The notes under the pieces are model-generated. The model was not told the origin of the DNA. It made no database searches and saw only the letters and a list, made by a program, of their open reading frames with translations. Shown here piece after piece: positions 7,355-24,313 of a stretch of DNA of 32,383 nucleotides. This DNA comes from a virus (Duplodnaviria > Heunggongvirae > Uroviricota > Caudoviricetes): IMG/VR virus record IMGVR_UViG_2861069343_000002, positions 1-32,383 of that record; one strand, given 5' to 3'. Every line of letters begins with the position of its first letter. The stretch's first letter is position 1. The position numbers and the translations under genes are program-made.

Positions 7355-7383
7355 ACAAAAAAGCCCGCCTGAACCGGCGGGCT
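7355..7383 (-). terminator. Rho-independent terminator downstream of lom
   Basis: Minus-strand hairpin AGCCCGCC-GGTTCA-GGCGGGCT followed by TTTTTT. Confidence 0.5.
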
Positions 7384-7409
7384 GTCATAACACTGTGTTA
7401 CCTGGCTAA

Positions 7410-8009
7410 TCAGAACTTATAACCAACACCCACGATGAAACCGTCAGTGCGCCAGTTGCCACTGCCGGAGCCTTCATAAGCGACATCAACGGCCACGGAT
7501 TCGGTCGGGTTAAACTGCACGCCAGCTCCCCACGCCAGAGAGGTGTTACTGTGGCGAGCGTCATCACTTCCGGTCAGCACGTCGTGCGTTTTTCCCTTGT
7601 TGTCAGTTACGCGGAGATAATCCCCGGAAAAAGTCGACACACGGCTGTAAGCCATACCCGCCATCGCATACGCGCTGAACCATTCATTCACGCGCACAGA
7701 CGGCCCCGCCATTACGCTGAACCAGCGGTTACGAACGGAATCCTCATGCCAGCGGGTATCGCTGTAACGGGTAAGCTGGCGATTCTTGTCTCCTGCATAG
7801 CTGAATGACGTCACCAGCCCCAGTGTGTCCGTAAACTCATAACGGTATTTCACGTTAATCCCGTTCAGATCATCGCTGCCGGGAACGTTGGTCCGGGCAT
7901 GAAGATACCCCGCGCTCAGCGTGGACTGATGTTCAGATGCCCATGCAGGCGCACCGGATACGGCCAGACAAATGGCTGCGGACAAAATGGCGGCATAAAG
8001 TTTACGCAT
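7410..8009 (-). CDS. lom: Lom-family outer membrane protein (Ail/Lom beta-barrel)
   Basis: 199 aa; signal peptide [24 protein letters not shown]; beta-barrel-like alternating aromatic pattern ending ...[10 protein letters not shown]; located between J-like gene and stf as in lambda. SD GAGAGGT before ATG. Confidence 0.85.
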
Positions 8010-8033
8010 AATTACCTCTCGCTTTTCTGCAAT

Positions 8034-8057
8034 AAAAAAGGCGCCAGAAATGGCGCC
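8034..8057 (-). terminator. Rho-independent terminator between J-like ORF and lom
   Basis: Minus-strand hairpin GGCGCC-ATTTCT-GGCGCC followed by TTTTTTATT. Confidence 0.45.
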
Positions 8058-8077
8058 CGCATATGGGTTATGAAAAT

Positions 8078-9604
8078 TCAGCTAATCGTGATACCTGCTG
8101 TGGATTTTTTCATCACCACAACCAGCAAATCACTGATACTGGCTGTGGGATACCAGTCATTTACCAGCCACGCTGATACCGAAAACTCCAGCGTCATGTG
8201 ACCGCGACCAGCAGGCATATCAATAACACCTGTATAAACCAGCGTATTATCCAGCGCGGTACGGTTATAAATTTCAGCACCATTTTTCTTCACTATCAGG
8301 CGGCATGACGAATAAATATCGTTATTCTCCCGCTCATGTTTAGCGCCACGAAACGCCACCGCGGGAATAACAATCTGCCGGTCAAACGGCTGATCGTCAT
8401 AAACCCTGACGGTAATGGTCCCTGATGGCCACCGCTCCGGTGCACGGGAGTCCCGGGGGAAAGCTTTGCCCACTGTTTTAACGAGATCGCCTTCAATCTG
8501 GTTCGCAGACAGTTTTCCCAGAACCCGACAGTTTTCATTTATCGTGACATTGTTGAGCGTCCCGGCGTTCGCATTCACACTGCCACTGATATCCGCATTT
8601 TTCGCCGTCAGTCGCCCATCCGGTGTAAGGGAAAATGCAGGAGGATTACCGCCGCTAGTAATGGTGGGAGCCGTCAGATATTTCAGGAACACGTCGTTCA
8701 TGAATATCTGATCACCCTGACCAACAAACATCGGTTTTGTGTTGCCATTTGCAGGATTAATCATCGCAATCCTGTCTGCCGCCAGCAGCACCTGACTCTG
8801 CATGCCGTCGGGGGTGTTCTCAATACCGGCACCGATACCCGCAATATAAAGGCGTCCATCCTGCATCTGCTGCAGCTTCACAGCCCACATGCTGTTCAGA
8901 TTATTATTTGTATCAACCTGAACCTTCTGTATCTGCTGGATCGCTGCACTCTGGTCTTCCAGTTTCTTATTGACGGTCTGTGTGATTTCATTGCTGACAT
9001 CCGTAATGGATGCCTGCTCTTTAAGCTGACGGATAAACGCCACTTTCTGTCGGGTAGCCTCTTCCTCAGCCTGCGTAAGAACACGGGTTTTCGCCGTAAC
9101 CTCAGAAATCAGCGCCAGATAATCCTGCTGACCAATCCCGCCACTGTTTCTGGCCTGTCGGATCTGCTGCTGAATACGCTGTAATTCCTGCAGCCCCGCA
9201 CTGGCCTGTTTCACACTGTCAATCTGACGATAAAACGCAGCAGCTGCTTTATCCTGAGCCTCCGCCAGAGCCATGGCCTGCGCCTGTTCCTCGCGCATTT
9301 TCTGGCTCAGTGCCTCCATACGCTGGCGGGTTTTCTCCACCTCGCGGGCCATGCGTTCATGAGCCTGTGCGTTCTTCTCCACCGTCTGCGCATGGACGGA
9401 TGCGGCTGTTGCAGCCGAAGACGCCGCCTGCGTTGTCTGCCGGGCGGCCTGAGTCTGACGCTCCATAAAACGCTGCATACGGGCAGAAGACCGTTCTGCA
9501 TCGCTGGCTGCACCATTCAGAAGGTTTTTGATACGGGGAATTTCATTTTTAAACTCTGCCGCATCAATCCCCAAATCAATGACCAGGTTGGCTATCTGGT
9601 CCAT
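8078..9604 (-). CDS. Short tail ORF: tape-measure-like N-terminus (lambda H-like) continuing into a host-specificity J-like C-terminal region; probable in-frame deletion remnant
   Basis: N-terminus [19 protein letters not shown] resembles lambda H N-terminus (recalled); coiled-coil Q/A-rich middle. Position directly upstream of lom is where J ends in lambda. No M/L/K/I genes present. ATG at 9604 with SD GGAGGTG. Confidence 0.5.
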
Positions 9605-9905
9605 AACGCACACCTCCGGAAATACCTTCCCCAAGATGCATCAGTTCTTCGTCCGTTCGCTCCGGTATCCCGTTCTCTTCCGGTAAAAGGCTGAAATCAG
9701 CCACCGCAGCATCACTGCTGCCGGACACCATTCTCACGATCAATGCCTTCAGCGAGGCAAACTGCGCATCCATCCACACATCACTGAAGCTCTGCATCCG
9801 GAAATAATCGCCCCACTCACCAAGCTCAGTGGCCGACATTTCCGACAGCATCCGCCGCCAGTCTGCCCGCCGGAACTCCCGGGCAAGCCGCATGACAAAC
9901 TGCAT
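9576..9905 (-). CDS. Tail assembly chaperone T-frame segment (expressed as G-T fusion by -1 frameshift in lambda-like phages)
   Basis: ORF in -1 frame overlapping the 3' end of the G-like gene, immediately upstream of the tape-measure-like ORF; conserved G/GT arrangement. Confidence 0.5.
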
Positions 9906-9913
9906 TTCCCGCG

Positions 9914-10303
9914 TCAGGACTTTTCCGGCGTCAGCACCTCATGCTCCAAATCCCCGGCATTATCAATGGCCCCCATACCGCTCAGCGACAGAACCATCTC
10001 CGCCCCCGCACCCAGGGCATCATACGACCATGTTGTAATAACGGATGCGTAAAGCGTCTCAACATCCTGAGACTGTTCCGCATTCCACAGTGAGCGGGAA
10101 ACCAGCCAGGCATTGATATCCATCCCCATCCGCAGAAAAGCAATCTGTCGTTCAGCCTCCGGCAGTTCTCCCTCCCCGGCATCAAACTTTGCCGTTCGCT
10201 GCTGAACAAACATCAGATATTCAATTCTCTGCAGCCCGGACAGCTCACTGAGCACCACGGACTGTTTTTCATAATTAAACGTGTCCTGTTTCAGAAACAT
10301 CAT
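9914..10303 (-). CDS. G: Tail assembly chaperone G
   Basis: Position after major tail gene V; MMFLKQDTF...VVLSELSGLQRIEYL resembles lambda G (recalled); SD GGTGGAG before ATG at 10303. Confidence 0.6.
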   Translation of the reverse strand: MMFLKQDTFNYEKQSVVLSELSGLQRIEYLMFVQQRTAKFDAGEGELPEAERQIAFLRMGMDINAWLVSRSLWNAEQSQDVETLYASVITTWSYDALGAGAEMVLSLSGMGAIDNAGDLEHEVLTPEKS

Positions 10304-10360
10304 GTTCTCCACCTGCAAAAAAGCCCCGAATAACCGGGGCAAATGATGAGTATCGTCCTG

Positions 10361-11104
10361 TTAACCTGCTGCGCTGACAGTCACCGCAGCCACAGCCACA
10401 AAATTCCCGTCAGCGGTCATGCCCACAATGCTGACACTGCCCTGCTTCACGCCTTTTACCGTGGCCACAAGTCCGTTCAGGGTAACCGTGGCAGTCTGTG
10501 GATCTGACGAATGCACACTGATCGCTTTGTCACTGGCTCCGTCAGGTTTTACTGTAAAGGTCAGCGTGGTGGTTGCTCCCACTTTTACACTGGCAGATGC
10601 CGGTGATACTGTCAGCCCGGTAACGCTCACGGTTTCAGTGCCTTCCTCTGCCAGATACGGACGCCCCACACCGCTGATTTTCACGGTGCGGGTCATCACG
10701 TCTTTTGAGGCAATGGTTTTACCCAGTGAACTCAGCCAGCCACGGAAAACATCAACAGTACCGTTGGAATATTTGATACGAAACGCGCAGACTTCACCGG
10801 AGTCGAACAACTGAACCAGTTTTTTCTGCCCGCTGTCCCCCGGACGCCAGGCCAGCGTCGCCGAAGTATCACCGACTGATTTCTGCCCCTGGGTTGTCGT
10901 TTTCCAGTCTGCATCTTCATCATCGAGATAAGTGTCATCTTCTGCATCAGCGGTCATTTCGCCAGGTTGCAGATCCTTCACCATCGCAAGACGCAGCCAG
11001 TCAGTGTCCGATAAAGGGTTCGCAAACGCATCGCCCTTGCCGGTATACATCCAGAACGTCGTTCCCGCACCTTTCGTTTTTGCCAGTGGATTTGGTGTGG
11101 TCAT
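10361..11104 (-). CDS. V: Major tail protein V with C-terminal Ig-like domain
   Basis: MTTPNPLAKTKGAGTTFWMYTGKGDAFANPLSD...YLDDEDADW...NGTVDVFRGW closely resembles lambda gpV (recalled); strong SD AAGGAGG before ATG at 11104. Confidence 0.85.
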   Translation of the reverse strand: MTTPNPLAKTKGAGTTFWMYTGKGDAFANPLSDTDWLRLAMVKDLQPGEMTADAEDDTYLDDEDADWKTTTQGQKSVGDTSATLAWRPGDSGQKKLVQLFDSGEVCAFRIKYSNGTVDVFRGWLSSLGKTIASKDVMTRTVKISGVGRPYLAEEGTETVSVTGLTVSPASASVKVGATTTLTFTVKPDGASDKAISVHSSDPQTATVTLNGLVATVKGVKQGSVSIVGMTADGNFVAVAAVTVSAAG

Positions 11105-11114
11105 TACCACCTCC

Positions 11115-11516
11115 TTAATTCGTGTACGTGATCTGGTACGTGATTTCCGCCATCGCCCAGGTGGCCATCTCATTATCACGTTGATAGTTAAAACCGAGTG
11201 GGATCAGGGTGTCGATGAGTCCGGAAAGTGCCGGTACATCATTCAGTGCCGGGAAAATGGTGCTCTCCATCCACATATCCAGCTCTGAATCCGGTGCCTG
11301 TGCCCGGATGAAGACAGCAATATGCAGAACAGCCTGCCAGTCATCTTCATCCGTCATTTTTCCGGTGTACTGAGCATCACTCAGCCACACCGCCACGGCA
11401 GGCAGTTCCTGCGCATCAACAAATGCCGGAAGTCCGTCAAAAAACGTGGCGCTGTCTCCACACTGTTCCCGAAGGCGTGCCAGTACGACCTGGCGGATTT
11501 GTGTATGTCGGTTCAT
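11115..11516 (-). CDS. U: Tail terminator protein U
   Basis: ATFFDG...AVAVWL...DSELDMWMES motifs resemble lambda gpU (recalled); ATGA overlap with upstream Z-like gene. Confidence 0.8.
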   Translation of the reverse strand: MNRHTQIRQVVLARLREQCGDSATFFDGLPAFVDAQELPAVAVWLSDAQYTGKMTDEDDWQAVLHIAVFIRAQAPDSELDMWMESTIFPALNDVPALSGLIDTLIPLGFNYQRDNEMATWAMAEITYQITYTN

Positions 11517-12091
11517 CGGGTCAGCCATAATCTCAGTTGTTGTTTCAGTGCATACCCCAGCTGTTTCGGCATTTCCGCGGCAATGATGCGGTCGCGGGCA
11601 TCTTCAAATGCCTGTGTCAGCGGTCCGGACAGCGGGATTTTCACCACATCAATGGGGTAACGATTTTTGCCATCAATACGCCGCATCACATGCCAGCGAC
11701 CATTCGCCAGTTGCTGAATAAACGCATCCCGGAAAAGATATTTACCCACCTTCAGCACGCTGCCACGGTACTGCAGTTTTCCACCACGCCGGGTCAGTCT
11801 GACCCGGGCGGTCCCCAGCTTAATGGCAGGCAGATTGCCCCGGTTAACGCGGATCCTGGCCGTCATTTTTCCTGACGGACTGGCTTTAAACACCCGGACA
11901 CGCTGACGTACCAGTTTCAGGGGTATCCCTTTCACCTGGTTATCTCCCGCAACGGTATTCCCGGCAACCTGCCGGGTGGCAACCGAGACCGCTTTCTGTG
12001 CCACACGGTTTATCGCCCATGCGCTGGCCTGTGGCACCATACGGGTATCAAGGCTGTTCAGATTGCGGATGGCATTCTCAAGCCCCTTCAT
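11513..12091 (-). CDS. Z: Minor tail / tail completion protein Z-like
   Basis: 192 aa, position between head-tail genes and U; SD AAGAGGTG before ATG. Confidence 0.65.
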   Translation of the reverse strand: MKGLENAIRNLNSLDTRMVPQASAWAINRVAQKAVSVATRQVAGNTVAGDNQVKGIPLKLVRQRVRVFKASPSGKMTARIRVNRGNLPAIKLGTARVRLTRRGGKLQYRGSVLKVGKYLFRDAFIQQLANGRWHVMRRIDGKNRYPIDVVKIPLSGPLTQAFEDARDRIIAAEMPKQLGYALKQQLRLWLTR

Positions 12092-12102
12092 CCCACACCT
12101 CT

Positions 12103-12378
12103 TTACTCAATAAAGATCATTGGCTTACCGTTAAAACGTTCATGCCGTGTGACCGTCCATTGTTGTCCGTCATAAACAACGCGATCCCCGCGCCGTGGGC
12201 GGTATCCCGAAGAAAACACCACCAGAGAGACCGCAGGTCCGGACAGAGCATTCAGCTCTGCCAGTGTTTCGCCCGGGATCACAGCCATATCGACATCATT
12301 AATCGAGGCTGTCTTTCCCATCTTTCTGACCGTGATCGCATCCATACGCGCTGCCAGCCGGGAAAAGGGATCAGACAT
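12103..12378 (-). CDS. Head-tail joining / head completion protein (FII-like), hypothetical
   Basis: 91 aa ORF in head-to-tail junction position; assignment by position only. Confidence 0.4.
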   Translation of the reverse strand: MSDPFSRLAARMDAITVRKMGKTASINDVDMAVIPGETLAELNALSGPAVSLVVFSSGYRPRRGDRVVYDGQQWTVTRHERFNGKPMIFIE

Positions 12379-12694
12379 TGAGTTTTACCGGCACTTCTTC
12401 TGCACTGGTTCCGGCATCTGCCCAGACAACCCCGACCAGCGGATCAGAGCCGCTGTTAGTCAGCTGAACTTTTCCGGACTTCAGATAAACCTTCTTACCC
12501 GTTTTCATGTCATCCGTTTTCAGTTTAGGCAGGATAAACACACCTTCGGTCATGCCGTCGCCTGTTTCACCCTGTGGAATATCGGTCAGCGCCACCGCAA
12601 AAACATCACCCACCTGCACCAGATCTCCGCTGCTGATGGCTGCACTGGCAACAATCGCCACCGTTTTTCCTTCTTCTACAAAATTCTTTGCCAT
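12371..12694 (-). CDS. DUF2190-like small head protein (possible decoration/cement protein)
   Basis: 107 aa from ATG at 12694 with SD GGAGACAG; Gly/Val-rich beta-rich composition; immediately downstream of the capsid gene. Confidence 0.45.
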   Translation of the reverse strand: MAKNFVEEGKTVAIVASAAISSGDLVQVGDVFAVALTDIPQGETGDGMTEGVFILPKLKTDDMKTGKKVYLKSGKVQLTNSGSDPLVGVVWADAGTSAEEVPVKLNV

Positions 12695-12737
12695 AACTGT
12701 CTCCGCACAGCCCCGTTCAGGGGCTGATTTCAGGTAC

Positions 12738-12756
12738 AAAAAAAGCCCTTACGGGC
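12738..12756 (-). terminator. Weak intrinsic terminator/attenuator just downstream of the capsid gene
   Basis: Minus-strand GCCCGTAAGGGC hairpin followed by TTTTTTT, 25 nt after the capsid stop. Confidence 0.35.
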
Positions 12757-12780
12757 CATCAGAGTTGTTGTCTGCGACGT

Positions 12781-14739
12781 TTACGCCGTACATTTCACCA
12801 GACCGCGGTGATCAACTGGCGCGACACCGGCGTCAATACGCACTTTCGTTGTCACGCCATCCACACTGAAGCCCTCCATCTGATCAATATATGGCGTATC
12901 CACACCGTTGAGATAAGCCACTTCAATCGTATCGGAGCCTTTTGACGCAGCCAGGTAGAAGGTGGTCTGGCTGTTATCATCAAGACGAGGCTCTGCAATA
13001 ACGGTCGCAAAATCTTTCACCGGGTTAATAATACCGGCGTTAATGTCAGCCCCCTTGACACTTGAGGAGCGAATGACCTGGTTAGCAACAGACTCCATCG
13101 CCGTCGGTACCAGTACGAACGCAGGACGAATATTCAGATGACGCTCCCCCTCTTTCTGAACGCGCATCAACTGGCGGGCTTTATCCAGCGATGCCACGTC
13201 CATTGCAGCGCTCTCCAGTACGTTTGCATGTTTCGCTTTATCGAACAGACTTACATTATCTGTGGAGATTTTCGGGTTAGACGTCAGAATGGCATAAACC
13301 AGATCGGCAATAGTGGATTTCGCCGCACGGCCCAGTTTCATCGGGACATCGGTCAGCATATTCAGATCATCATTGATAATGGCCTGACGGGTGATACTGA
13401 ACAGCTCGCCATAGGTCGCCAGTGCAATAGTGGCCTGTTTATCTCCGGTGGTGACGTATTTATATTCCGCCCCTTCACGCACCTGACGCAGAGCACTGAA
13501 GCCCCCCATACCCACACGATGGGCAATTTTAAAATCAGACAACTGACCTTTCCGCGTCCACTGTTCATAGGTTTCAGGGGCATCTTCCCAGCCCTGCAGA
13601 ATGGCTTTGTTCGCAACATCCAGCAGAATATTACCGAAGTCAGACGTACTGTGTGTGAACGCCGCACCGACCATCTGCATCGGGTTATAACCGGAAACCC
13701 CAATACCCCGTTCAGTCAGTGACATACGGGCATATTCACGCAGGGTCATCCCGTTGTAGACATTATCACGTTCGGTTTTTTCAAATCCGGCACGCGCCAT
13801 CAGCGCCTGGCGAATCCCGTCCCCCACAAAATTACCGTTACCGGCATAAATATGAGCCGGGGTATTTTTATTGGATGGCGTGGACTCGCGCCCCATCTCG
13901 TTCAACAGCTTTTCACGGGCCTGCTCCAGCGAACATTCAGGATCGGCAAGACACTGAGCCTGCAGCGTCTGATAACGCCCGCCAAACATGGCAAACAGAT
14001 CATTAATACCGTTTACACGCGCTTTTTGCTCTGCCAGTACCTGTGCACGGATGCTGTTTTCATCCACCACGGGTGCTGCTGCCTGCACTGGCGTCCGGGA
14101 GGCTTCAGATTCATTATCCTGTACGCGTGGAGCACTGTTGCGTGGCGGAGTAATCATGTTTCGAATGGATTCCGGCATCTTTTTAAATTCCTCTGTACGT
14201 TTTGACTGAATACATGCCATTGCCTTAACGGCTGGCGTTACCTGATCAGCAAATCCATGTGCCAGACATTCGGCACCGGACATCCAGGTCTCATCCGCCA
14301 GCATGGCAGCAATTTCATCGGTGGTTTTCCCGGTTTTCTGTGCATAAGCGGGTAACAGAACCGCCTCAACTTTATCGAGCAGGTCGGCATAGGTGCGCAT
14401 GTCCTCCGCATCACCGCCCGTAAAGCCAAATGGTTTATGAATCATCATGAAGGTGTTTTCCGGCATAATGACCGGGTTTCCCACCATCGCAATGACCGAC
14501 GCCATTGACGCCGCCACACCGTCGACATAAACGGTAATGGACGCACCATGTGTTTTCAGCGCATTAAAAATGGCGATGCCTTCAAAGACATCGCCACCCG
14601 GTGAATTAATATGGAGATTAATGTGGGTGATATCGCCCAGTGCATTCAGATCACTGATAAACTGCTTCGCTGTAACACCCCAGAAACCAATCTCGTCATA
14701 AATATAAATATCCGCGTCACTCTGGTGACCAGCCTGCAT
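12781..14739 (-). CDS. Prohead protease (ClpP/S49-like) fused to HK97-fold major capsid protein
   Basis: N-terminal DADIYIYDEIGFWGV...INSPGGDVFEG...ASMASVIA serine protease motifs, long C-terminal capsid-like region; first ATG after portal stop chosen (14739); longest ORF extends to 15000. Confidence 0.75.
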   Translation of the reverse strand: MQAGHQSDADIYIYDEIGFWGVTAKQFISDLNALGDITHINLHINSPGGDVFEGIAIFNALKTHGASITVYVDGVAASMASVIAMVGNPVIMPENTFMMIHKPFGFTGGDAEDMRTYADLLDKVEAVLLPAYAQKTGKTTDEIAAMLADETWMSGAECLAHGFADQVTPAVKAMACIQSKRTEEFKKMPESIRNMITPPRNSAPRVQDNESEASRTPVQAAAPVVDENSIRAQVLAEQKARVNGINDLFAMFGGRYQTLQAQCLADPECSLEQAREKLLNEMGRESTPSNKNTPAHIYAGNGNFVGDGIRQALMARAGFEKTERDNVYNGMTLREYARMSLTERGIGVSGYNPMQMVGAAFTHSTSDFGNILLDVANKAILQGWEDAPETYEQWTRKGQLSDFKIAHRVGMGGFSALRQVREGAEYKYVTTGDKQATIALATYGELFSITRQAIINDDLNMLTDVPMKLGRAAKSTIADLVYAILTSNPKISTDNVSLFDKAKHANVLESAAMDVASLDKARQLMRVQKEGERHLNIRPAFVLVPTAMESVANQVIRSSSVKGADINAGIINPVKDFATVIAEPRLDDNSQTTFYLAASKGSDTIEVAYLNGVDTPYIDQMEGFSVDGVTTKVRIDAGVAPVDHRGLVKCTA

Positions 14740-14752
14740 CCTGAACCAGGAA

Positions 14753-16261
14753 TTATTCTTCGGACTGGTCGTCGGTGTGCTGCGGCTCCTGTCGTTTCGT
14801 TGCGGCACTACTGCCTCCTTTATCACTGGCCGGATCGGTATCAAATACCAGATCCAGCTTGCGGTTTTCATCAATTTCGGCCTTGCGCCGACGTTTGACA
14901 TCATCCGGATTACGACCACCAGCACGTACCCAGTCTGATTCTGTCGCCGCTCCACCACGAATCTGGATTTTCCAGGCCTCAGCCTCCTTAACAGGGTCAA
15001 TCCACGGCATCACCGGTCCGGAATACACCGCGGTATACAGTGAAGAACGGTCAAGATCGCGGGGTAGCCTGATAACACCGGATGCCACAGCCTGTTTCAG
15101 CCAGGCACGATACATCGGACGGGTGACGGCACCAATAAACCAGTCCTGCAGGATCAGGTAGCCATCAGTGGATTCAACCAGCTCCTGACGCTGGGCGCTG
15201 TAAGTGCCGTTATAGTTGCGCGCTGTACTGGAAAAACTCAGACGACTGCCCGCCGCCACGGCACGCAACTGACCATTACGAAAAGTTTCAAGGTTAGGAT
15301 TGGGGCGATCCGACTTCACCATTCCGATTTCTTCGCCGGGTTTCAGATCATCGTAAATAATGCCTGGCTGAATGGTAAGCTCGCGTTCCTTATCCTTGCT
15401 GCCATTACCATCCGCTTCATAGCTCTGCCCGTCGCCTTTCCGGATGTACATCCCCAGAGCAGCGGCGATCCTTGCTGCAGTCAGCTCAGAATCTTCATAC
15501 TCTTTCAGAGCACTGAGGCGGATCAGCACACCGGACAATAAAGACGTCCCGCGCATCTGGTGCAGACGGCGAACAAATTTAAGATGCAGCATTCGCTCTG
15601 CATCCACTTCTTTGGTTTCCATCTGCCGTCCGGATACGGGACGGCTTTTATACACCAGATATTTTTCGGGACGCCCCCAGTCATCAACAAACACGCCCTG
15701 ATTCAGCCTGTTGCTCTCATCACTGGTCATGGGAATAAAGTCCGGCTCGAGCGCCTCCAGCCAGAAATGAACACCGGCAGAAGGCGTCAGGCTGTTTATG
15801 CGCCCGGAAACCATCTGGGCAAACACCTCACCATCGCGCAGCCAGGTACGAAGCATCAGACGTTCCAGCATCGGACGGGTAAACTGCCCGGTGACTTCCG
15901 GGCTGACAGACCATTCACTCCATCGGGTGCGAATCTCCGCAGCCAGGTCACGGGCAATGGCCCCATTGCGTAATACCGGATGTGGCTCGACAATAATCCC
16001 GTTTTTCCCCACCACCCGTTCTTCCAGCTTGTCAAATACACCAATAACCAGATCGTGGTTGTTATCAAGGTAACGGGCCTGCTCACGTAACGACACGGCC
16101 CCGTACTGGCTTAACTGGTCGGCAGTTCGGTTCTCCCGTCGGGCTTTGTGTGTCCGCGTCGTTTTTACGGCCTCATAAGCCTGGATCACCGCACGGGAAC
16201 GCAGCCTTGCCGCTTTCCATCCTGGTGAAAAAACGCCAATCACATCATCAAGAATTGCCAT
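14753..16261 (-). CDS. Portal protein (lambda-family portal-like)
   Basis: About 500 aa ORF immediately upstream of the protease-capsid gene; no Walker A motif (argues against terminase); acidic C-terminus. Start uncertain: ATG 16261 (SD GAGG), ATG 16291 (ATGA overlap with endolysin stop) or GTG 16303. Confidence 0.65.
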   Translation of the reverse strand: MAILDDVIGVFSPGWKAARLRSRAVIQAYEAVKTTRTHKARRENRTADQLSQYGAVSLREQARYLDNNHDLVIGVFDKLEERVVGKNGIIVEPHPVLRNGAIARDLAAEIRTRWSEWSVSPEVTGQFTRPMLERLMLRTWLRDGEVFAQMVSGRINSLTPSAGVHFWLEALEPDFIPMTSDESNRLNQGVFVDDWGRPEKYLVYKSRPVSGRQMETKEVDAERMLHLKFVRRLHQMRGTSLLSGVLIRLSALKEYEDSELTAARIAAALGMYIRKGDGQSYEADGNGSKDKERELTIQPGIIYDDLKPGEEIGMVKSDRPNPNLETFRNGQLRAVAAGSRLSFSSTARNYNGTYSAQRQELVESTDGYLILQDWFIGAVTRPMYRAWLKQAVASGVIRLPRDLDRSSLYTAVYSGPVMPWIDPVKEAEAWKIQIRGGAATESDWVRAGGRNPDDVKRRRKAEIDENRKLDLVFDTDPASDKGGSSAATKRQEPQHTDDQSEE

Positions 16262-16287
16262 CAGAACCTCGCCAGCCGGTACTCTGC

Positions 16288-16785
16288 TCATTGTTGCCCC
16301 CACAAACAGACTTCACGCTCAATCTCACGACGAGTCATCAGGCCTTTCCATTGCTTACCGCCAGCGTATATCCAGCGACGTAGCTGGTCACATGCGCCTT
16401 TGATATCGCCCTGGTTTATTTTGCGAAGAAGCGTCGATGTTCTGAAATTACCAGCACCCACGTTGTAGACGAACGAGTAAAGAGCGCCGCGCGTTGTTTC
16501 CGGTATATCGACTTTGATGTACGGGTTAATTTGTCTGGCAACCGTGGCAAGGTCTTTATTCAGGAGGGCTTTGCATTCTGCTTCGGTATACGTTTTACCG
16601 AGCATGATGTCTTTTCCGGTGTGTCCGTGACATACAGTCCATACGCCAACGATATCTTTGTATGGTATGTAGCTGACACCTTCCAGGCCATCGTCACCAC
16701 TTGGGCCAGTGATTAACACTGATGCTATAGCAATTGCTCCGCCACCAATAGCAGCAGCAACTGCTTTTCGTAATGATGGAGGCAT
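16288..16785 (-). CDS. SAR endolysin (GH24 lysozyme with N-terminal signal-anchor-release domain)
   Basis: N-terminal Gly/Ala-rich weakly hydrophobic segment [20 protein letters not shown] followed by lysozyme-like domain; start overlaps pinholin stop by 1 nt. Confidence 0.8.
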
Positions 16786-17000
16786 TATTCACCTCTCGCA
16801 GCCTTGCGCTTATCTTCTTTAATCTTGAAATAAAGGTTTGTCAGGTACGTCAGCAGGCCAAATACCAGACTACCCAGCACACCTATTGCCGCCCACTGTG
16901 AGGGCGTGACTTTATCGAGCAACTGTAAAAACCAGTACCCGGCACTACCTGCTGAGGTGCCATAGGCGACACCCGTTGTTAACTTATCCATGGATTTCAT
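16785..17000 (-). CDS. Pinholin, phage 21 S-like with dual start motif (MKSMDK)
   Basis: [29 protein letters not shown]...[36 protein letters not shown] closely resembles phage 21 S21 (recalled); two in-frame ATGs separated by two codons; SD GAGGTG. Confidence 0.85.
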
Positions 17001-17036
17001 AACCCCACCTCGCAGATGCGGGTGCTGTGTAATGGA

Positions 17037-17061
17037 AATAAAAAGGCCACCTGACGTGGCC
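17037..17061 (-). terminator. Intrinsic terminator between the N6-MTase gene and the lysis cassette
   Basis: Minus-strand GGCCAC-GTCAG-GTGGCC hairpin followed by TTTTTATTT. Confidence 0.45.
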
Positions 17062-17067
17062 ACCAGA

Positions 17068-18120
17068 TTATTTCCCCACCAGCTCGTTTATCTCTTTCAC
17101 TGTCTGGTTAAACCGCTCTGACTCAAGCTCAACACCTAAGGCCCGACGCCCCAGCGCCATTGCTGCTTTTATTGTGGAACCGGATCCCATAAAAAAATCA
17201 GCAACCAGATCACCTGGTCGACTACTGGCATTGATTATTTGCCTGAGCATATCCGCCGGTTTCTCACACGGATGTTTCCCCGGGTAGAACTGAACGGGTT
17301 TATGCATCCAGACATCGGTATAAGGCACGGAGACTGATACGGAGAAATAGCGCCGGAGAGATTTAAACTCATCCAGCAATTCAGAATATTTGCGATTCAG
17401 TGAATCATAAGATGCCACCAGCTGGTGGTGTGGTTGTTCCAGTTGTTGTTCCTGAAACTTCTCTGCCGCTATACGGGAAAACAGTGCCTGTAACTTCCGA
17501 TAGTCAGCCTCATTCGGCAACTGCCACTGACTGGCACCAAACCAGTGGGAAACCATATTTTTCTTACCTGTGGCTTCGGCAATTTGTTTTGCCGTTACAC
17601 CCAGTTCGGCACGAGCATCCCTGAAATACGATATCAGCGGTGCCATTATGTGCTGTTTGAGTTCCCTTTCTTTTGCCGCATAGCCGTCACTTTTGCCGCG
17701 ATATGGTCCCTGGTAATGTTCAGCAAACAGAACGCGCTCTGTGGCAGGAAAATATGCGCGCAGACTTTCTTTATTACACCCATTCCAACGTCCGGACGGC
17801 TTCGCCCAGATGATATGGTTAAGCACGTTGAAACGTTCACGCATCATGATCTCAATATCAGATGCCAGGCGATGCCCACAGAACAGGTAAAGGCTTCCGG
17901 CAGGTTTCAACACCCGCCAGAACTGGGCCAGACAGTGGTCCAGCCACTTAAGGTAATCTTCGTCCCCTTTCCACTGATTGTCCCAACCGTTGGGTTTCAC
18001 CTTGAAGTAAGGCGGATCGGTAACAATCAGGTCAATGGAATCATCAGGCAGGGACTGAATAAAATGCAGGCAATCAGCGTTGATTAAATCAACACTGTTT
18101 ATTTTTACAGTATTTTTCAT
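17068..18120 (-). CDS. DNA N6-adenine (or N4-cytosine) methyltransferase, beta-class, orphan phage MTase
   Basis: Motif IV DPPY near N-terminus (LIVTDPPYF) and AdoMet motif I FMGSGST near C-terminus; 350 aa. Confidence 0.8.
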
Positions 18121-18269
18121 GGATCAGTAAGCGTAACTCTGGTAGGCTCACTCTGCTTTTGCGCTAAAGCAGTGGGCCGTGGTTCGCTTGTGACCAGTAA
18201 GCATGAGCGAATGGCTGGCAGGTGCTACCAACACCCACCAGCCGCCCATTTTCACAAATTAAAAGTCCT

Positions 18270-18464
18270 TCATTGCTGAAGGCGTCTGTAACAGCCGAAC
18301 TGGTAATCTGCCAGCCCCGCCATAACCAACTGGGTCAGTATTAACTGACAGCGTTCGCGTGAAAGATATGTGTTTTGTGCAATCTCCCCGACTGTTGCCG
18401 GTTCGATGCTTAATTCATTAAAAACAACTTTCGCCGTTTCTGTCATATCTTGCTGTTTTAGCAT
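18270..18464 (-). CDS. Hypothetical small protein, possible HTH
   Basis: 64 aa from ATG 18464 with SD AAGGA; segment TVGEIAQNTYLSRERCQL is HTH-like. Weak support. Confidence 0.3.
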   Translation of the reverse strand: MLKQQDMTETAKVVFNELSIEPATVGEIAQNTYLSRERCQLILTQLVMAGLADYQFGCYRRLQQ

Positions 18465-18586
18465 GTCTTTTTTCCTTCTGGTTAACATGACATACCAATA
18501 ACTCTTGTCTAAAAAGCCAGCAAGATAAAAAGTCAGTATTCACGACCACCAGCGTGTTTACCGTACTGCACCAGGTTTACAGGTAC

Positions 18587-18612
18587 AAAAAAACCCGCTC
18601 GACGGCGGGTTT
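18587..18612 (-). terminator. Strong minus-strand intrinsic terminator upstream of the plus-strand cassette
   Basis: Minus-strand AAACCCGC-CGTCGA-GCGGGTTT hairpin followed by TTTTTTT. Confidence 0.5.
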
Positions 18613-18657
18613 AAGTTGTGTGGCGAAGTAACCACTCTTAACACAATACAATACTTT

Positions 18658-18686
18658 TTGCGTACGCGTTATAGTTTTCTTACAAT
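18658..18686 (+). promoter_or_regulatory. Candidate sigma70 promoter of the DUF262-HEPN cassette
   Basis: TTGCGT (18658..18663), 17 nt spacer, TACAAT (18681..18686); SD AAGGAA then ATG at 18713. Confidence 0.3.
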
Positions 18687-18712
18687 CAACTTTCAATTAA
18701 AGGAACGAAAAC

Positions 18713-19873
18713 ATGACTACACTCAAAGAACTCAAAGAAGAGCTTGCTCAGATACAAGATGAACACGCTAAGAACAGAAAAAAGGCTGAAATTGCAGCTT
18801 TAACCGCTTCCGCTGACAATGAAATCAGACTCGCTCAGAGAAACATTGGATACAATGTACGTGAGTGGACCGTTGAAGTCATTATTCAAAAGTATGGTGA
18901 TAATATTGAAAATGACAAAAACGAGCTTTTTATTCCAGATTATCAACGTGATTACAAGTGGGATACAAAAACAGCCTCTCGCTTTATAGAAAGTATTCTA
19001 TTAGACTTTCCAATACCTTACCTTTACATTGCTGATGTATTTAATGAAGACCCTGAATTAGATGGTAGGGTAGAAATCATTGATGGTTCACAACGGATAC
19101 GCTCTATTTATTATTTTTGGAACGATCAATTTGAGTTAAAGGATTTGAAAGAGCTTAAAAGTTTAGAAGGTTTCAAATTTTCAGATCTTTTAGCTAGCCG
19201 CCAAAGAAGATTTTTAAGAGCTTCACTAAGATTTATTGAGTTGAAAGGTGATGTTGAGGAACAACATAGAAGAGATTTATTTGAAAGGATCAACTCAGGT
19301 GTTAAAAGATTAGAAGCGATGGAAGTGAGGCATGGCTCAGATGCTGCTACCTCAATGTTCTATAAAGATGTTGTGACCCCATGCTCAACAAACTCACTTT
19401 TTTCCCAACTAGCTCCATTATCAGACCGGAAACGGTCGAATGGCGATCATCGTGAGTTAGTTTTGAGATTTTTTGCATATTTAAATGATTTAGAAAACTA
19501 TAAGGGATTTGTCCGTCCCTTTATTGATAATTATTTAAATGAACAAGCAGCAGCTGTGACTACTCAACAAGATGTTGATAATTTTAAACATGATTTTGAA
19601 ATGATGCTTGCTTTTGTTGCTACCCATTTCCCTATTGGCTTTAAAAAGACCGCAACAAGTAAAACCACCCCACGAGCCAGATACGAAGCCATTGCCGTGG
19701 GAACTGCACTTGCATTAAAAACTAACCCACAACTCCAGAGTCCAGCCGTACCTGTAGGTGAATGGCTATTTGAAGAGGAATTTGAAACACTTGTTACTGC
19801 TGATAGTGCAAACAATACCAGCCAGCTAAAAAACAGAATCTTTTACGTTAAAAATAAGTTGTTAGGGATTTAA
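18713..19873 (+). CDS. DUF262 (ParB/Srx-like, GmrS-type N-terminal domain) protein
   Basis: 386 aa; hallmark motifs FIPDYQRDYKW and IIDGSQRIRSI (DGQQR variant); no DUF1524/HNH C-terminal domain evident; AT-rich. Confidence 0.75.
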   Translation: MTTLKELKEELAQIQDEHAKNRKKAEIAALTASADNEIRLAQRNIGYNVREWTVEVIIQKYGDNIENDKNELFIPDYQRDYKWDTKTASRFIESILLDFPIPYLYIADVFNEDPELDGRVEIIDGSQRIRSIYYFWNDQFELKDLKELKSLEGFKFSDLLASRQRRFLRASLRFIELKGDVEEQHRRDLFERINSGVKRLEAMEVRHGSDAATSMFYKDVVTPCSTNSLFSQLAPLSDRKRSNGDHRELVLRFFAYLNDLENYKGFVRPFIDNYLNEQAAAVTTQQDVDNFKHDFEMMLAFVATHFPIGFKKTATSKTTPRARYEAIAVGTALALKTNPQLQSPAVPVGEWLFEEEFETLVTADSANNTSQLKNRIFYVKNKLLGI

Positions 19874-19875
19874 AA

Positions 19876-20565
19876 ATGAGTCTAATTGATTTACGAGATG
19901 AATATGAAGAAAGAGCAAGAGACATTATGGAACTGCTTTCTCTTGCATCATCTATAGAGATTCATACTCAGCAGTTAGATCCGCAAGCGCATCAAGATGA
20001 AATAGAATCTAATATCCTAAGGGTAAATATTTTAAAATCATCCGTTCATATGATGCTATATAATCAAGTTGAAAATACTGCCAGAGGTTGCATCGAGTCA
20101 ATTTATGATCATTTACAAGATAATGAGGTGAATTACGCATCACTCAGGGAGAAGCTTCAAGTAAATATATTACATAGAATTGTTTCAGATAATGAAACAG
20201 GGCAATCCCTTTATAAAAAGATAGGCACTGACATTTCCAAAAGAATAATTTCAGCCTCATTGAATATTCGTAAAGAATTCAATGGTAATGTTTGCAAGCC
20301 TGTATTACACAAAATAACGCAGGCTTACGGAATAACTATCGCAAACTCACCTGAATGTAGAAATGGTATTGACTTAGACTTGCTTAAGGATATCAGAAAC
20401 GAACTCGCGCATGGAAGTACTAGCTTCTCTAAAAAGGGGCAAATTGACCCCTTAGAAGAAGTTAAGTCTAGAGCAGAGAGAGTTGATCTATATCTTCGTT
20501 TATTAATAAACTCAACTGAAGATTATATTATCTCTAACGGATATTTATCCCCTCAACATGCCTAA
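19876..20565 (+). CDS. HEPN-domain protein (Rx4H motif), putative RNase effector coupled to the DUF262 gene
   Basis: 229 aa; RNELAH matches HEPN R-x4-6-H; starts 2 nt after the DUF262 stop with SD AGGGA; 3' end overlaps convergent MTase gene by 32 nt. Confidence 0.65.
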   Translation: MSLIDLRDEYEERARDIMELLSLASSIEIHTQQLDPQAHQDEIESNILRVNILKSSVHMMLYNQVENTARGCIESIYDHLQDNEVNYASLREKLQVNILHRIVSDNETGQSLYKKIGTDISKRIISASLNIRKEFNGNVCKPVLHKITQAYGITIANSPECRNGIDLDLLKDIRNELAHGSTSFSKKGQIDPLEEVKSRAERVDLYLRLLINSTEDYIISNGYLSPQHA

Positions 20566-21574
20566 CAAACGTTCTCCCTATTACTTGGCCAATTATAGGG
20601 GGAACAGCATTACCAATCATCGTTCCTAACTTTTGGAATGAAAAAGGCGTATTTTTTCCAATAAATTTATAATCCATAGGAAAAGATTGTAAAATAGCAG
20701 CTTCACGCAAAGTTATTGCTCTATTTTGCTCAGGATGTCCGAATCGCCCATTACCATATCCATAACATTGGGTAGTTATTGTAGGACTAGTATCGTCCCA
20801 AACCATCCGTCCATAAACACTTTTATAGGTAGCACCTGAATGCTTTTTATGGCAATCCGCTCTAATTTCTTCAGGCCAATCATCCCACGTACCACCTGGT
20901 AAAGAGTGCAAGATTCGTTTAAGGTTAATATCCCTTAATTTAGGCGAACGATGCAATGGATCACTTTCGAGTTTCTCCCCTGCACCTATTTTTGGCAACT
21001 GACCAATAGCATCCTTTACTGTAACTTTACGGCTTACTTTTTTTTGATCAAGGCTGATTGGCCCCAATATGGACCCAATTAGAATTAATCTACGTCTATT
21101 TTGAGGCAAGCCATACTCGGAACATTTTACAACGTCGTACCACAGATGATACCCAAGAGTCTTTAATACACTAACAAACTCTTCAAAAACCTTATGATTT
21201 CTAAGTTGAGGAACATTTTCCATAGTCACAAGCTCTGGCATGACATCACTTACAATCCTCTGAAACTCAGATAAAAGACGCCACTTTGTATCATCTTTTC
21301 TGCTATTTGGATTACGATACTTGGAAAACGGTTGGCAAGGGGCACAGCCTGCAAGTAATCTAATATTTCCTTCCTTGAACATAGCAGACACATCGCTGGA
21401 TTGCAGTTCAGTAACTGACTGGTTAATGAACTTCGTTAAGGGATTATTGCTCTCAATAGCGAAACGGCAGGACTCATCAATATCAATGCCATGAGAAACT
21501 TCAATCCCGGCTTTTTTTAGCCCAAAAGTTAAGCCCCCTGCGCCACAAAAAATGTCTACTGCTTGAATGTTCAC
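20534..21574 (-). CDS. DNA cytosine-5 methyltransferase (Dcm-like), first gene of the late operon
   Basis: Motif I DIFCGAGG, motif IV GCAPCQPFS (catalytic PC), motif VI ENV, motif VIII QNRRR, motif X GNAV; GTG start at 21574 with SD GGAGAA. Confidence 0.85.
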   Translation of the reverse strand: MNIQAVDIFCGAGGLTFGLKKAGIEVSHGIDIDESCRFAIESNNPLTKFINQSVTELQSSDVSAMFKEGNIRLLAGCAPCQPFSKYRNPNSRKDDTKWRLLSEFQRIVSDVMPELVTMENVPQLRNHKVFEEFVSVLKTLGYHLWYDVVKCSEYGLPQNRRRLILIGSILGPISLDQKKVSRKVTVKDAIGQLPKIGAGEKLESDPLHRSPKLRDINLKRILHSLPGGTWDDWPEEIRADCHKKHSGATYKSVYGRMVWDDTSPTITTQCYGYGNGRFGHPEQNRAITLREAAILQSFPMDYKFIGKNTPFSFQKLGTMIGNAVPPIIGQVIGRTFVRHVEGINIR

Positions 21575-21600
21575 AAGATTCTCCGTTACTTTACCCTGGT

Positions 21601-21629
21601 ATTATATACACATAAAAGTTGGGAAAGTA
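21601..21629 (-). promoter_or_regulatory. Candidate late promoter (pR'-like) downstream of Q
   Basis: Minus-strand TATAAT (plus attata 21601..21606) in the 79-bp Q-to-MTase gap; -35 poor (TACTTT). Confidence 0.25.
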
Positions 21630-21653
21630 GAATGATTTTACATAGCACTTAAC

Positions 21654-22007
21654 TCATTGTATTAAATAAAAAAATGACAAGCATCCATCAATAAACCCCA
21701 TAGCTGTTTGCATATCTTTTCGAACTGTTCCGTCTGAACATTTCCGCTTCTTTGCAATTGTACGGAGCGAAATGCCAACAACAAAGTGAGCAATTATCAG
21801 CTCATACTCTGCCGGCTTGTATTTACGCAACCTAGCGACACAACCGTCTATTATGATGCCCTCATCATCATCGCACTGAATCCGGGACTTTCTGCCATGA
21901 GGTAAAAGCCGCTTGAAGCCAGCAGCTACCGGTTGCCAGTCCACACCACTGTTTTCTGCAGCAGCCCATGCCCCCCAGCGGTCCAAAACTTCATACATAT
22001 CACGCAT
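21654..22007 (-). CDS. Late gene antiterminator Q-family protein (Phage_antitermQ-like)
   Basis: LDRWGAWAA...W...AAGFKRL...SRIQCDDDEGIIIDGCVARL pattern matches small phage Q proteins as recalled; position before late operon; ATG 22007 with SD GGAGAAAG. Confidence 0.65.
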   Translation of the reverse strand: MRDMYEVLDRWGAWAAAENSGVDWQPVAAGFKRLLPHGRKSRIQCDDDEGIIIDGCVARLRKYKPAEYELIIAHFVVGISLRTIAKKRKCSDGTVRKDMQTAMGFIDGCLSFFYLIQ

Positions 22008-22024
22008 CAACTTTCTCCACAAAA

Positions 22025-23020
22025 TCAGGCCAGCACGCCAATTGCCAGCGCACGATCGATAAAACGAAATATCAGCTCCAGCTGGGAGCCATACATCTCT
22101 TCAAATGCCACGGTATCTGCATGCAGCTCGTCGTGATGCTTTCTGCACAAAGGCAACACAAAGAGGTCATGCGCTTTTGTACCCATTCCACCCTGACCGT
22201 GACCTATCAGGTGGTGGGGATCATCAGCAGGCTTTCCACAACATGCACACGGCTGTGTCTTAACCCAGCGCGTGTACTTTTCATTAACCCAGCGGCGACG
22301 TTTTGGGCGTAACATAAAAGACTCCGGCGACTCCGGATCCACTTTCAGCGCCAGCACCTTTTTCGCCTTATCCTGGATGATGCTGGTAGCAGGAACCGAA
22401 GGCACAAGGTCACTTTCCCGGGTGACAGACGGCACAACAGGCTTCGGTAATCTCAGTGCCTTACGGGCTGCACTTTCCGGTAAGGCATCCGCCAGGTCAT
22501 TACGAATCAGCCACCAGCACAGTTCCGGCATTGTCACAACGTGACTGTCATCAAAACCGAGATCCCGACGCACAACAGACAACACCCAGCGGGCACAGTT
22601 ATCCGTTGCCATTGATTCCAGCCGTTCCGTGAACTGATCACGCAGCTGGTTATCGCAGTGCCAGCACAGACGGATTGCACCCGGAGCGTGTCGCATTGTG
22701 GTCATGTTCTCGCTGTGCCAGTCGGAATGAGGCCACTGGCAGCCTTTTTCACGAAGTAACCAGCTTTCAAGACATTCCACGCCACCAGCACGACGGATCA
22801 CTGCCTCATTGCGGAACACGGCCCAAACGGCAGGATCATCCGCCAGCGGTTGTGACGCCGCGGGAACGGCACCACTGGCGAAAGATGAATAATGCTCCGG
22901 CTCAGGCTCCAGCAGGACACGCCCCTGCATAAACAGGGGCATCAGCTCTGAACCGGGCCTGAACAATACGATCCCCATACGCGGGGCAATTTCAGGGGTC
23001 AGTAGTGCTCTCACGGTCAC
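22025..23020 (-). CDS. DUF968 protein (YdfU-like) with C-terminal HNH-like zinc motif
   Basis: C-terminus QPCACCGKPADDPHHLIGHGQGGMGTKAHDLFVLPLCRKHHDELH; GTG start at 23020 (alternative ATG 22978). Confidence 0.65.
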   Translation of the reverse strand: MTVRALLTPEIAPRMGIVLFRPGSELMPLFMQGRVLLEPEPEHYSSFASGAVPAASQPLADDPAVWAVFRNEAVIRRAGGVECLESWLLREKGCQWPHSDWHSENMTTMRHAPGAIRLCWHCDNQLRDQFTERLESMATDNCARWVLSVVRRDLGFDDSHVVTMPELCWWLIRNDLADALPESAARKALRLPKPVVPSVTRESDLVPSVPATSIIQDKAKKVLALKVDPESPESFMLRPKRRRWVNEKYTRWVKTQPCACCGKPADDPHHLIGHGQGGMGTKAHDLFVLPLCRKHHDELHADTVAFEEMYGSQLELIFRFIDRALAIGVLA

Positions 23021-23021
23021 C

Positions 23022-23369
23022 TCAATGAACGGTATCGAGCAGCTTTAACAGCTCAGGGACCAGTTTTTCCGCCTGGCGAGTCAGGCACAAAATCACCCGG
23101 GAATCGTTAGTGCCGACATAGAAATTGCGCACAGGTCTGGTTTCACGAACTGGTTGTGGTTCCGGCTCCTGCGCTCTCTCAGTCAGGCGCGGGAAATGTC
23201 TGCGTGTATCCCCTTCACAACGGTGAGCCACACGCCCACTCTGACGTAACTTGCTTGCTGACTGCAGAACGCGCTGCCGTGAGTAACCTGCAAAAGCATC
23301 CGCAATGTCTCCGGAAGTACAGCCCGGATGGGCTTCAATGAATTTCTGAACTTCATTCAAAAGACTCAT
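23022..23369 (-). CDS. Hypothetical prophage protein
   Basis: 115 aa from ATG 23369 (SD GGGGGTGA); position between replication gene and DUF968. Confidence 0.4.
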   Translation of the reverse strand: MSLLNEVQKFIEAHPGCTSGDIADAFAGYSRQRVLQSASKLRQSGRVAHRCEGDTRRHFPRLTERAQEPEPQPVRETRPVRNFYVGTNDSRVILCLTRQAEKLVPELLKLLDTVH

Positions 23370-23371
23370 GC

Positions 23372-24313
23372 TCACCCCCTGAATCCTGCCGGGATCTGGC
23401 TGTAGTCCACGCTGTCGTAACTGGATTTGAAATACGGGTCTTCGCGTTTTTCTGTGTATGTGCTGATGGACGGCGATAAGCGCAGGGAAAGCTCATCCCA
23501 TTTTTCCCGCAGCTTCGACGGGCTGAGCACGTTACGGCACCAGAACGGATCGCGGCTGACGCGGCTGTACATCTCGCAGATTTGTTTGTGAGTACGACCA
23601 TCCTGCACACACATCAGGCGAATTTCGTTTGCCCAGGCTGTCCAGTTCGGTTCTTTGGGACGAACCACCTCGCCGTCACATTCGGCGGCCTGCTCGTACA
23701 GGGCAATGATTTTTTTCCAGAGCCACTGTGCGCAGGTCAAATCATCCTGCGTTCCCCACTGGCGCTTTTTAGGGCTGAATACAACCGCATCAGGATGGCG
23801 AGTTAAAAAATCCTGTTCAGCCGTCTGCGTGTCCGGTTGCGAAGCGTCCGGACGAGAAGGTTTTTTATCTGACGGATCATGTTTTGATTTTACTGACGGA
23901 TCCCCGCCAGATTCTGACGGGTGAAAACCCGCTTTTTTGCCAGATTTCGACGCATCAAATTTTGACGTGTCAGATTTTGATGCGTCAGATTTTGACGGGT
24001 CAGAATCTGACAGTTGAGAAAATGCCGCTGCCTGAAGCTTCGCAACGTTAAGCTGATAAACATTCGACGCATTGCGGTTACCCTGGCGACGCGCCTTACG
24101 CGTTAACCAGCCTTCTGCTTCCAGCCGTGCGATAGCCGTTCTGACGGTACTCATCCCCGCGCCAATCTGACGGGCAATAGTTTCAATTGATGGCCAGCAC
24201 ACACCTTCGTCATTACTGAAATCAGCCAGGCGGGCCATAATTGCCACGCTGGATAATTTCATGCCTGACGCAGCGCAACCATCCCATACATAGCCGGTTA
24301 ATTTAGTGCTCAT
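23372..24313 (-). CDS. Replication initiator (lambda O-like function) with winged-helix N-terminus and iterons inside the coding sequence
   Basis: N-terminal HTH/winged helix (SIETIARQIGAGMSTVRTAIARLEAEGWL); central SKSDASKSDTSKFDASKSG repeats encoded by tandem approximately 15-bp DNA repeats; SD AGAGGT before ATG 24313. Confidence 0.6.
   Translation of the reverse strand: MSTKLTGYVWDGCAASGMKLSSVAIMARLADFSNDEGVCWPSIETIARQIGAGMSTVRTAIARLEAEGWLTRKARRQGNRNASNVYQLNVAKLQAAAFSQLSDSDPSKSDASKSDTSKFDASKSGKKAGFHPSESGGDPSVKSKHDPSDKKPSRPDASQPDTQTAEQDFLTRHPDAVVFSPKKRQWGTQDDLTCAQWLWKKIIALYEQAAECDGEVVRPKEPNWTAWANEIRLMCVQDGRTHKQICEMYSRVSRDPFWCRNVLSPSKLREKWDELSLRLSPSISTYTEKREDPYFKSSYDSVDYSQIPAGFRG
23890..24013. 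repeat. Iteron array (putative phage replication origin) inside the initiator gene
   Basis: Tandem approximately 15-bp units (CAGATTTCGACGCAT, CAAATTTTGACGTGT, CAGATTTTGATGCGT, CAGATTTTGACGGGT, CAGAATCTGACAG) plus upstream CAGATTCTGACGGGT. Confidence 0.55.

Follow-up and report, generated by a model that had tools for sequence, protein, structure and literature searches.

A phage-21-type pinholin and SAR endolysin cassette that lost its spanin genes in a defective lambdoid prophage at thrW

The lysis genes of phage 21 are the closest described counterpart of the locus studied here. The pinholes made by its holin S, the release of its SAR endolysin R and the mechanism of the longer holin form, S71, have been described (PMC6116005, PMC9636201), as have SAR domains in general and the E-X8-D-X5-T motif that defines the lysozyme (PMC9239132). 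The curators of the phage 21 record (OL657228) annotated the two products of S as "S21-71 product of dual start; antipinholin" and "S21-68 ... pinholin class II". Two other systems are relevant. The DLP12 element of Escherichia coli K-12 (essD-rrrD-rzpD) is a defective lambdoid prophage that retained its lysis genes, including those of the spanins (PMC7918800). The Rz/Rz1 amber mutants of phage lambda have a holin and an endolysin but lack spanins, and spanin-null cells lyse when sheared, but do not if the outer membrane is stabilised by divalent cations (PMC6139136).

We analysed a lysis locus in a DNA stretch of 32,383 nt, which we call the window and always consider at its full length. In the list of open reading frames of the window, the S and R genes are two minus-strand frames that occupy exactly positions 16288-17000, the very interval that a sequence-only reading of this DNA had given to a pinholin and SAR endolysin cassette without spanin genes. 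RefSeq draws the same boundaries in identical DNA of other genomes, in which the two genes are labelled essD and rrrD. As in phage 21, S precedes R and overlaps it by one base (TAATG), and the start of Rz overlaps the stop of R. The two loci differ on both sides of this pair. Upstream of S there is a methylase gene and a terminator, where phage 21 has tRNA genes, and downstream of R the spanin genes Rz/Rz1 have been deleted after the fourth codon of Rz. We conclude, with a probability of about 0.93, that this is an intact phage-21-type cassette, made of a dual-start pinholin/antipinholin S and a SAR endolysin R, in a defective lambdoid prophage located in thrW beside proA (Table 1). Neither gene is a chance pattern; both are full-length and near-identical copies of characterised proteins.

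Table 1. Features of the lysis locus and of the adjacent deletion junction, in window positions; the last three lines give the sequences read across the junction.
Feature	Position	Strand	Basis
S71 frame, antiholin form, 71 aa, starting at Met1 of MKSMDK	16785..17000	-	ORF, Pfam, alignments
S68 frame, pinholin form, 68 aa, starting at Met4	16785..16991	-	Second ATG (16991-16989), read from sequence
Shine-Dalgarno region GAGGTGGGGT, serving both start codons	17002..17011	-	Read from sequence
SAR endolysin, 165 aa, GH24 T4-type lysozyme	16288..16785	-	PF00959, structure matches
Endolysin codons 1-30, containing the SAR (signal-anchor-release) segment	16696..16785	-	Identity to phage 21 R
Intrinsic-terminator-like hairpin GGCCACGTCAGGTGGCC followed by a T-run, between the methylase and holin genes	17045..17061	-	Terminator scan
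Terminator-like hairpin	18612-18591	-	Terminator scan
Rz (i-spanin) remnant, ATG AGC AGA GTA (MSRV), overlapping the endolysin stop (ATGA)	16280..16291	-	First 12 nt of sibling Rz
Deletion junction with 3-bp GTA microhomology	16277..16282	-	Manual comparison with the sibling on both sides
Last 18 nt of the deleted 213-nt gene upstream of the portal, now read as PAGEVL in the Rz/portal frame	16262..16279	-	Sibling comparison
Lambda-family portal gene, directly 3' of the endolysin gene and in frame with the Rz start	14753..16261	-	PF05136, E=5e-82
Junction as read in the window: ...CAACA ATG AGC AGA GTA CCG GCT GGC GAG GTT CTG ATG GCA...		-	
Sibling, lysis side (Rz): ...ATG AGC AGA GTA ACC GCG...		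-	
Sibling, portal side: ...GGG TAT CGG CTG GCG AGG TTC TGA TGG CA... (end of the 213-nt ORF overlapping the portal start)		-	

The holin matches the Pfam profile of the family, PF04971 ("Bacteriophage P21 holin S"), from position 1 to 63 of its 64 positions (E=2e-35, 121 bits for a bit-score cutoff of 26). NCBIfam offers no model for this protein. Alignments show that it is identical to S of phage 21 at 61 of 71 residues (86%), with the same MKSMDK start, and that it does not differ at all (100% identity) from the holins encoded by phage 434, by phage Ayreon and by the intact sibling prophage presented below. The phage 434 protein is itself curated as an S71 antiholin/S68 class II holin pair. 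The residues Met1-Lys2-Ser3-Met4 are invariant across our protein and those of phages 21, 434 and Ayreon, and the second start lies at the position of that of S21-68 in the phage 21 record. In phage 434, the DNA identical to GAGGTGGGGT is annotated as two adjacent ribosome-binding sites, assigned to S71 and S68, respectively. Given the MKSM start and GAGGTGGGGT, both starts are predicted to be used at this locus. The 66 nt around the two starts fold no better than shuffled sequences in the window (z=-0.10), and the 66-nt fold of the phage 21 dual start was also not above controls (z=-0.69).

The ten differences with S21 are all conservative (I7L, S8T, I11V, W27L, Q30K, S32T, L47F, F49L, R61K and R64K) and are all found in phages 434 and Ayreon. 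The second transmembrane domain (TMD2) is invariant relative to S21 save for positions 47 and 49. It includes no change at G40, S44 and G48, a motif whose role is discussed in the S21 literature. Kyte-Doolittle profiles computed in windows of 17 residues describe TMD2 as strongly hydrophobic (approximately residues 36-56, with a peak of 2.02; only residues 31-61 score above 1.0) and TMD1 as weakly hydrophobic (residues 8-27, of which 12 out of 20 are Gly, Ala, Ser or Thr). This is the pattern expected of a releasable TMD1 and a channel-forming TMD2. The proposal that the holin has the dual-start arrangement of phage 21 S thus stands, with a full family match. The sequence-only reading had also counted a class II topology as an argument against a pinholin. 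That point was mis-stated, since S21 itself is a class II (two-TMD) holin according to the phage 21 record, and a class II topology is therefore the expected outcome here.

The endolysin belongs to the lysozyme family PF00959 (E=1.8e-45 with Pfam). Its closest structures are RrrD of K-12 (PDB 4ZPU, E=6e-110), with 162 of 165 residues identical (98%), and the lysozyme R of phage 21 (PDB 3HDE, E=4e-109), with 160 of 165 (97%). It also matches 3HDF, whose shorter chain of 140 residues covers positions 27-165 of the protein, and, more remotely, Lyz of phage P1 (1XJT, 1XJU); matches to NCBIfam models were limited to sub-threshold ones with BgtA and SpmX. The protein is 100% identical to those of Ayreon and the sibling prophage, and 98% identical to that of phage 434. 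It differs from RrrD by three substitutions (N31D, K68E and T139I), all of them also present in Ayreon, whose record gives E. coli K12 as the host. The catalytic triad is intact (E35/D44/T50, spaced as E-X8-D-X5-T), invariant in the alignment and the same as in phage 21.

The N-terminus of the endolysin had been described as a Gly/Ala-rich SAR domain, and this description held. The first 30 residues are identical to those of R of phage 21 (the R21 chain in 3HDE; see also 3HDF). Behind the basic residues R6 and K7 comes a weakly hydrophobic segment (A8-T26, Kyte-Doolittle peak of 2.29), in which 12 of the 19 residues are Gly, Ala, Ser or Thr. The segment agrees with what has been published on SAR domains (PMC9239132). 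The 97% identity to R21 suggests that the protein would be exported in a Sec-dependent manner, tethered in an inactive form and released upon depolarisation. On all the traits that can be assessed from sequence, the cassette belongs with the S21 pinholins and the R21 SAR endolysins, and it lacks the traits of a spanin pair. We see nothing in the sequence that would contradict a cassette of the phage 21 type.

By analogy with phage 21, one can propose how the cassette would work; its expression, the formation of pinholes and the spanin-null phenotype would all follow from this analogy. Late transcription antiterminated by Q would pass the terminators that precede S, as in the phage 21 paradigm. 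S68 and S71 would then build up in the inner membrane, and R would be exported by Sec and kept inactive by its SAR helix. Upon triggering, which S71 would delay by virtue of its extra Lys2, TMD1 of the pinholin would leave the bilayer and TMD2 would assemble into small heptameric channels of ~2 nm. The pinholes predicted for this S would depolarise the membrane, collapsing the proton motive force, and would bar the passage of a cytoplasmic endolysin. R would be released, refold and degrade the cell wall.

Expression of the cassette would thus still kill the cell and destroy its wall, but the third step of lysis, that of the Rz/Rz1 spanins, would be lost. The cells would end up as fragile spheres enclosed by the outer membrane, with rupture left to shear or osmotic forces. 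This is the phenotype expected from the lambda spanin-null mutants, i.e., fragile spheres that lyse only under shear or at low concentrations of divalent cations (PMC6139136). The comparison with lambda has limits: its ambers are engineered nonsense alleles in a canonical holin pathway, and the present case is a natural deletion in a pinholin/SAR pathway. Furthermore, the terminase is also absent here, so that no progeny is at stake.

The prophage is flanked by an integrase/tRNA-Thr/proA junction on one side and by an AbiL-like gene pair on the other. The RefSeq names essD and rrrD suggested DLP12 as a source for the element. We rejected this origin because of the location, which is thrW/proA and not argU. 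DLP12 lies at argU, between fimZ/sfmZ and ompT/envY, and we found this site to be empty in strain AR437, one of the carriers of the deletion junction described below, where envY, the tRNA-Arg gene and fimZ are adjacent (NZ_CP029108, 251,400-251,800) and DLP12 is thus absent. Since the element adjoins the integrase/tRNA-Thr/proA junction and the argU site of AR437 is empty, the names essD and rrrD reflect only the similarity of the proteins. Like DLP12, the element is a defective lambdoid prophage that kept lysis genes.

The prophage retains an intact CI-like repressor, with HTH and S24 (autocleavage) domains, and an intact Q antiterminator (PF06530). The terminator-like hairpins upstream of S (Table 1), of which GGCCACGTCAGGTGGCC also occurs in phage Ayreon with a terminator annotation, imply that the lysis genes would need Q-antiterminated transcription. 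A consensus scan of the minus strand between Q and the next gene revealed no late promoter. A TATAAT hexamer can be spotted by eye ~45 nt downstream of the Q stop, which does not establish it as pR'.

Several putative defence genes lie in this prophage. The interval between Q and S contains a Dcm-type cytosine methylase (20534-21574, minus strand), an N6/N4 methylase (17068-18120, minus strand) and, between them, a pair that is antisense to the late operon (18713-20565, plus strand). The latter consists of a GmrSD_N/DUF262 protein (NsnA in PADLOC, E=6e-45) and a HEPN nuclease of the MAE_28990 type. The interval looks like an island of defence or anti-defence cargo in a 'moron' position. Just past the tail-fibre genes, the AbiL-like pair (1392-3196, minus strand) encodes an AAA ATPase (AbiLi in PADLOC, E=1e-65) and a partner of 177 aa (AbiLii, E=1.5e-9).

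The closest intact relative that we identified is a prophage of E. coli 2024CK-00474 (NZ_CP157234), which we call the sibling. The two are 99.9% identical over the lysis region and 98.5% over the wider prophage. The window, the sibling and Ayreon, at 99.8-99.9% DNA identity, share the same succession of methylase gene, terminator, S and R; Rz/Rz1 were kept in the sibling, in Ayreon and in phage 434. The sibling encodes, in this order, S, R, Rz(/Rz1), two small ORFs, TerS (DUF1441), TerL, an ORF of 213 nt and the portal. Its Rz has 155 aa and an embedded Rz1, whose lipobox (VVGC) is revealed by translation in the +1 frame. Relative to the sibling, the window lacks ~4,058 bp directly after the endolysin gene (~4947-9004 of the sibling locus). 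The lost segment contained Rz/Rz1, the two small ORFs, the genes of TerS and TerL and the 213-nt ORF that precedes the portal gene, and presumably cos. Both terminase genes being gone, virions could not be packaged.

We mapped the junction by reading directly the window and the two breakpoint flanks of the sibling (Table 1); one junction base differs from the sibling. BLAST comparisons gave the same picture, because homology to relatives with spanins ends at position 16277 of the window (in the best 40 of 157 phage records and in the genomes listed without the junction). In these same records and genomes, a spanin gene (Rz or 'lysis protein') directly follows R. The earlier claim that a deletion accounts for the missing spanin genes is thus backed by both the sibling and the phage records. 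We also considered that the element might be a satellite or a capsid-forming island in which R and the portal gene are natively adjacent. We rejected this possibility: the sibling has the full segment from Rz to the terminase, and the junction cuts two genes. We conclude that a single microhomology-mediated deletion removed the spanin and the terminase genes together.

The deletion fused the start codon of Rz and the three codons that follow it in frame to the portal gene, which directly follows R. The encoded portal (WP_000985945.1) is the same protein as in the sibling and, in its extended form, matches TIGR01539 (E=2e-137). The native portal ATG (16261) and its GAGG were retained. Between 16291 and 16261 on the minus strand, one can read the Rz start (the ATGA overlapping the endolysin stop), then six codons derived from another frame, and then the portal. 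The ATGA overlap indicates that the Rz start codon is probably translationally coupled to the endolysin stop. The locus could thus encode, besides the native portal, one with an N-terminal extension of 10 aa.

We then looked for spanins in the rest of the window. Homologs of Rz and Rz1 were not found in tblastn searches using the proteins of phage 434 and of the sibling as queries (best E=0.27 for Rz and 0.41 for Rz1). A scan of all ORFs of at least 30 aa on both strands provided no candidate with a lipobox-type signal; it used a loose pattern, and the two control Rz1 proteins were detected with a stricter one. A two-component spanin pairs an i-spanin, with an N-terminal TMD and periplasmic coiled coils, with a Pro-rich o-spanin lipoprotein. 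Of these, the i-spanin gene is reduced to its ATG and three codons and the o-spanin gene was not found in the window. If the host genome contains other prophages, their spanins could complement the cassette in trans.

A 120-nt probe of the junction matched fully in 7 of 5,426 complete genomes of E. coli (AR437, IH5, N73, N137, N169, N196 and 23GD35035), which suggests a rare event that probably occurred only once. The carriers differ by what they lost afterwards. N196 has the same deletion between the lysis and portal genes and kept the tape measure and J. IH5, which is 100% identical to positions 4041-24000 of the window, lacks the tape measure and J, as does the window. AR437 lacks the stretch between the middle of the protease/capsid gene and Lom. 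The different later deletions of the carriers amount to ordinary stepwise prophage decay.

Further differences were observed outside the lysis region. The tail deletion of the window, common to IH5, lies at 8078-9905 (minus strand), where the tape measure and the N-terminal part of J are gone. The ORF of 518 aa that now follows the tail assembly protein T contains only the C-terminal domains of J (Phage_Tail_Tip and Ig_GpJ_C, residues 231-518), and the genes expected between the tape measure and J are taken as lost too. A third difference concerns the early-right region: relative to 14750-17620 of the sibling, the genes of the KilA-N, RusA and LexA families are absent at 22025-23375 of the window (minus strand), between a DUF968 gene and a truncated hypothetical gene. 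The left end of the IH5 prophage falls in the tail-fibre gene and abuts a fragment of IS1 and a truncated LysR gene (5370-6016 of its locus). The neighbours of this end are dsbG/ahpC instead of the pao genes, which suggests a rearrangement mediated by IS1.

One may ask whether the pair of S and R without spanins was domesticated, i.e., maintained by selection on the host for cell-wall turnover, control of outer membrane vesicles (OMVs), biofilm formation or altruistic lysis triggered by the SOS response. There are precedents in related systems, since the S-R-Rz/Rz1 operon of DLP12 was reported to modulate the production of OMVs in K-12 and proposed to be domesticated (PMC7918800), and EssD and RrrD have been implicated in the release of vesicles after exposure to antibiotics (PMC12287860). 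In addition, at least two further deletions in carriers of the junction, the one from the capsid gene to Lom (AR437) and the one from the tape measure to J (IH5 and the window), spared S and R. However, the DLP12 cassette in the OMV work still has its spanins, and the sparing of a target of 0.7 kb by three deletions in a prophage of ~25 kb is what one expects by chance. The intact siblings and Ayreon encode the same S and R proteins (100% identity) in DNA that is 99.8-99.9% identical, so that there was no time for purifying selection to become detectable, and the junction is found in very few genomes. Because intact relatives carry identical genes and the deletion is both rare and recent, we find no support here for domestication, which we regard as very unlikely.

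A more specific variant assumes that a spanin-less pair, in a prophage that lacks a terminase and carries defence genes (the AbiL-like pair, the GmrSD/HEPN pair and two methyltransferases), was selected as a 'suicide/vesiculation' module triggered by the SOS response or by Q. Activation would then give wall-less spheres or large vesicles instead of clean lysis, and this would be the property under selection. We think that there is little chance that this is so. The two remaining explanations carry almost no weight. An artefact of assembly or scaffolding, with spanin and terminase genes really present, could be imagined because similar prophage regions occur in multiple copies (at a median of two places per genome) and can be mis-assembled, but nothing specific points to it, and the junction is identical in seven complete genomes that were assembled independently, in different studies and countries, which shows that it is not an artefact, in line with a clean breakpoint with microhomology and with nested additional deletions consistent with one common ancestor. 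The idea that a non-homologous product of the window (a unimolecular spanin or a disruptin-like peptide) disrupts the outer membrane and makes the cassette functionally complete finds some footing in the great diversity of spanins, some of which are unannotated or encoded apart from the lysis genes (PMC6139136), but it is hardly credible given the outcome of the lipobox scan, the use of Rz/Rz1 by all siblings at the deleted position and the presence of the portal gene directly 3' of R.

The phage-21-type cassette thus represents known biology, that of an ordinary pair of pinholin and SAR lysozyme in a recently degraded thrW prophage of E. coli, and reveals no new mechanism. Its importance beyond correct annotation is small. 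The annotation itself is worth clarifying, because the genes labelled essD and rrrD by RefSeq are, at this locus, the textbook phage 21 pair in a lambdoid prophage at thrW, not DLP12. The locus is also a tidy natural case of stepwise decay, in which one deletion took the spanin and terminase genes and descendant strains then lost different parts of the tail or head modules. Finally, it provides a natural spanin-null pinholin cassette, with which the consequences of lacking spanins may be studied in a wild isolate.
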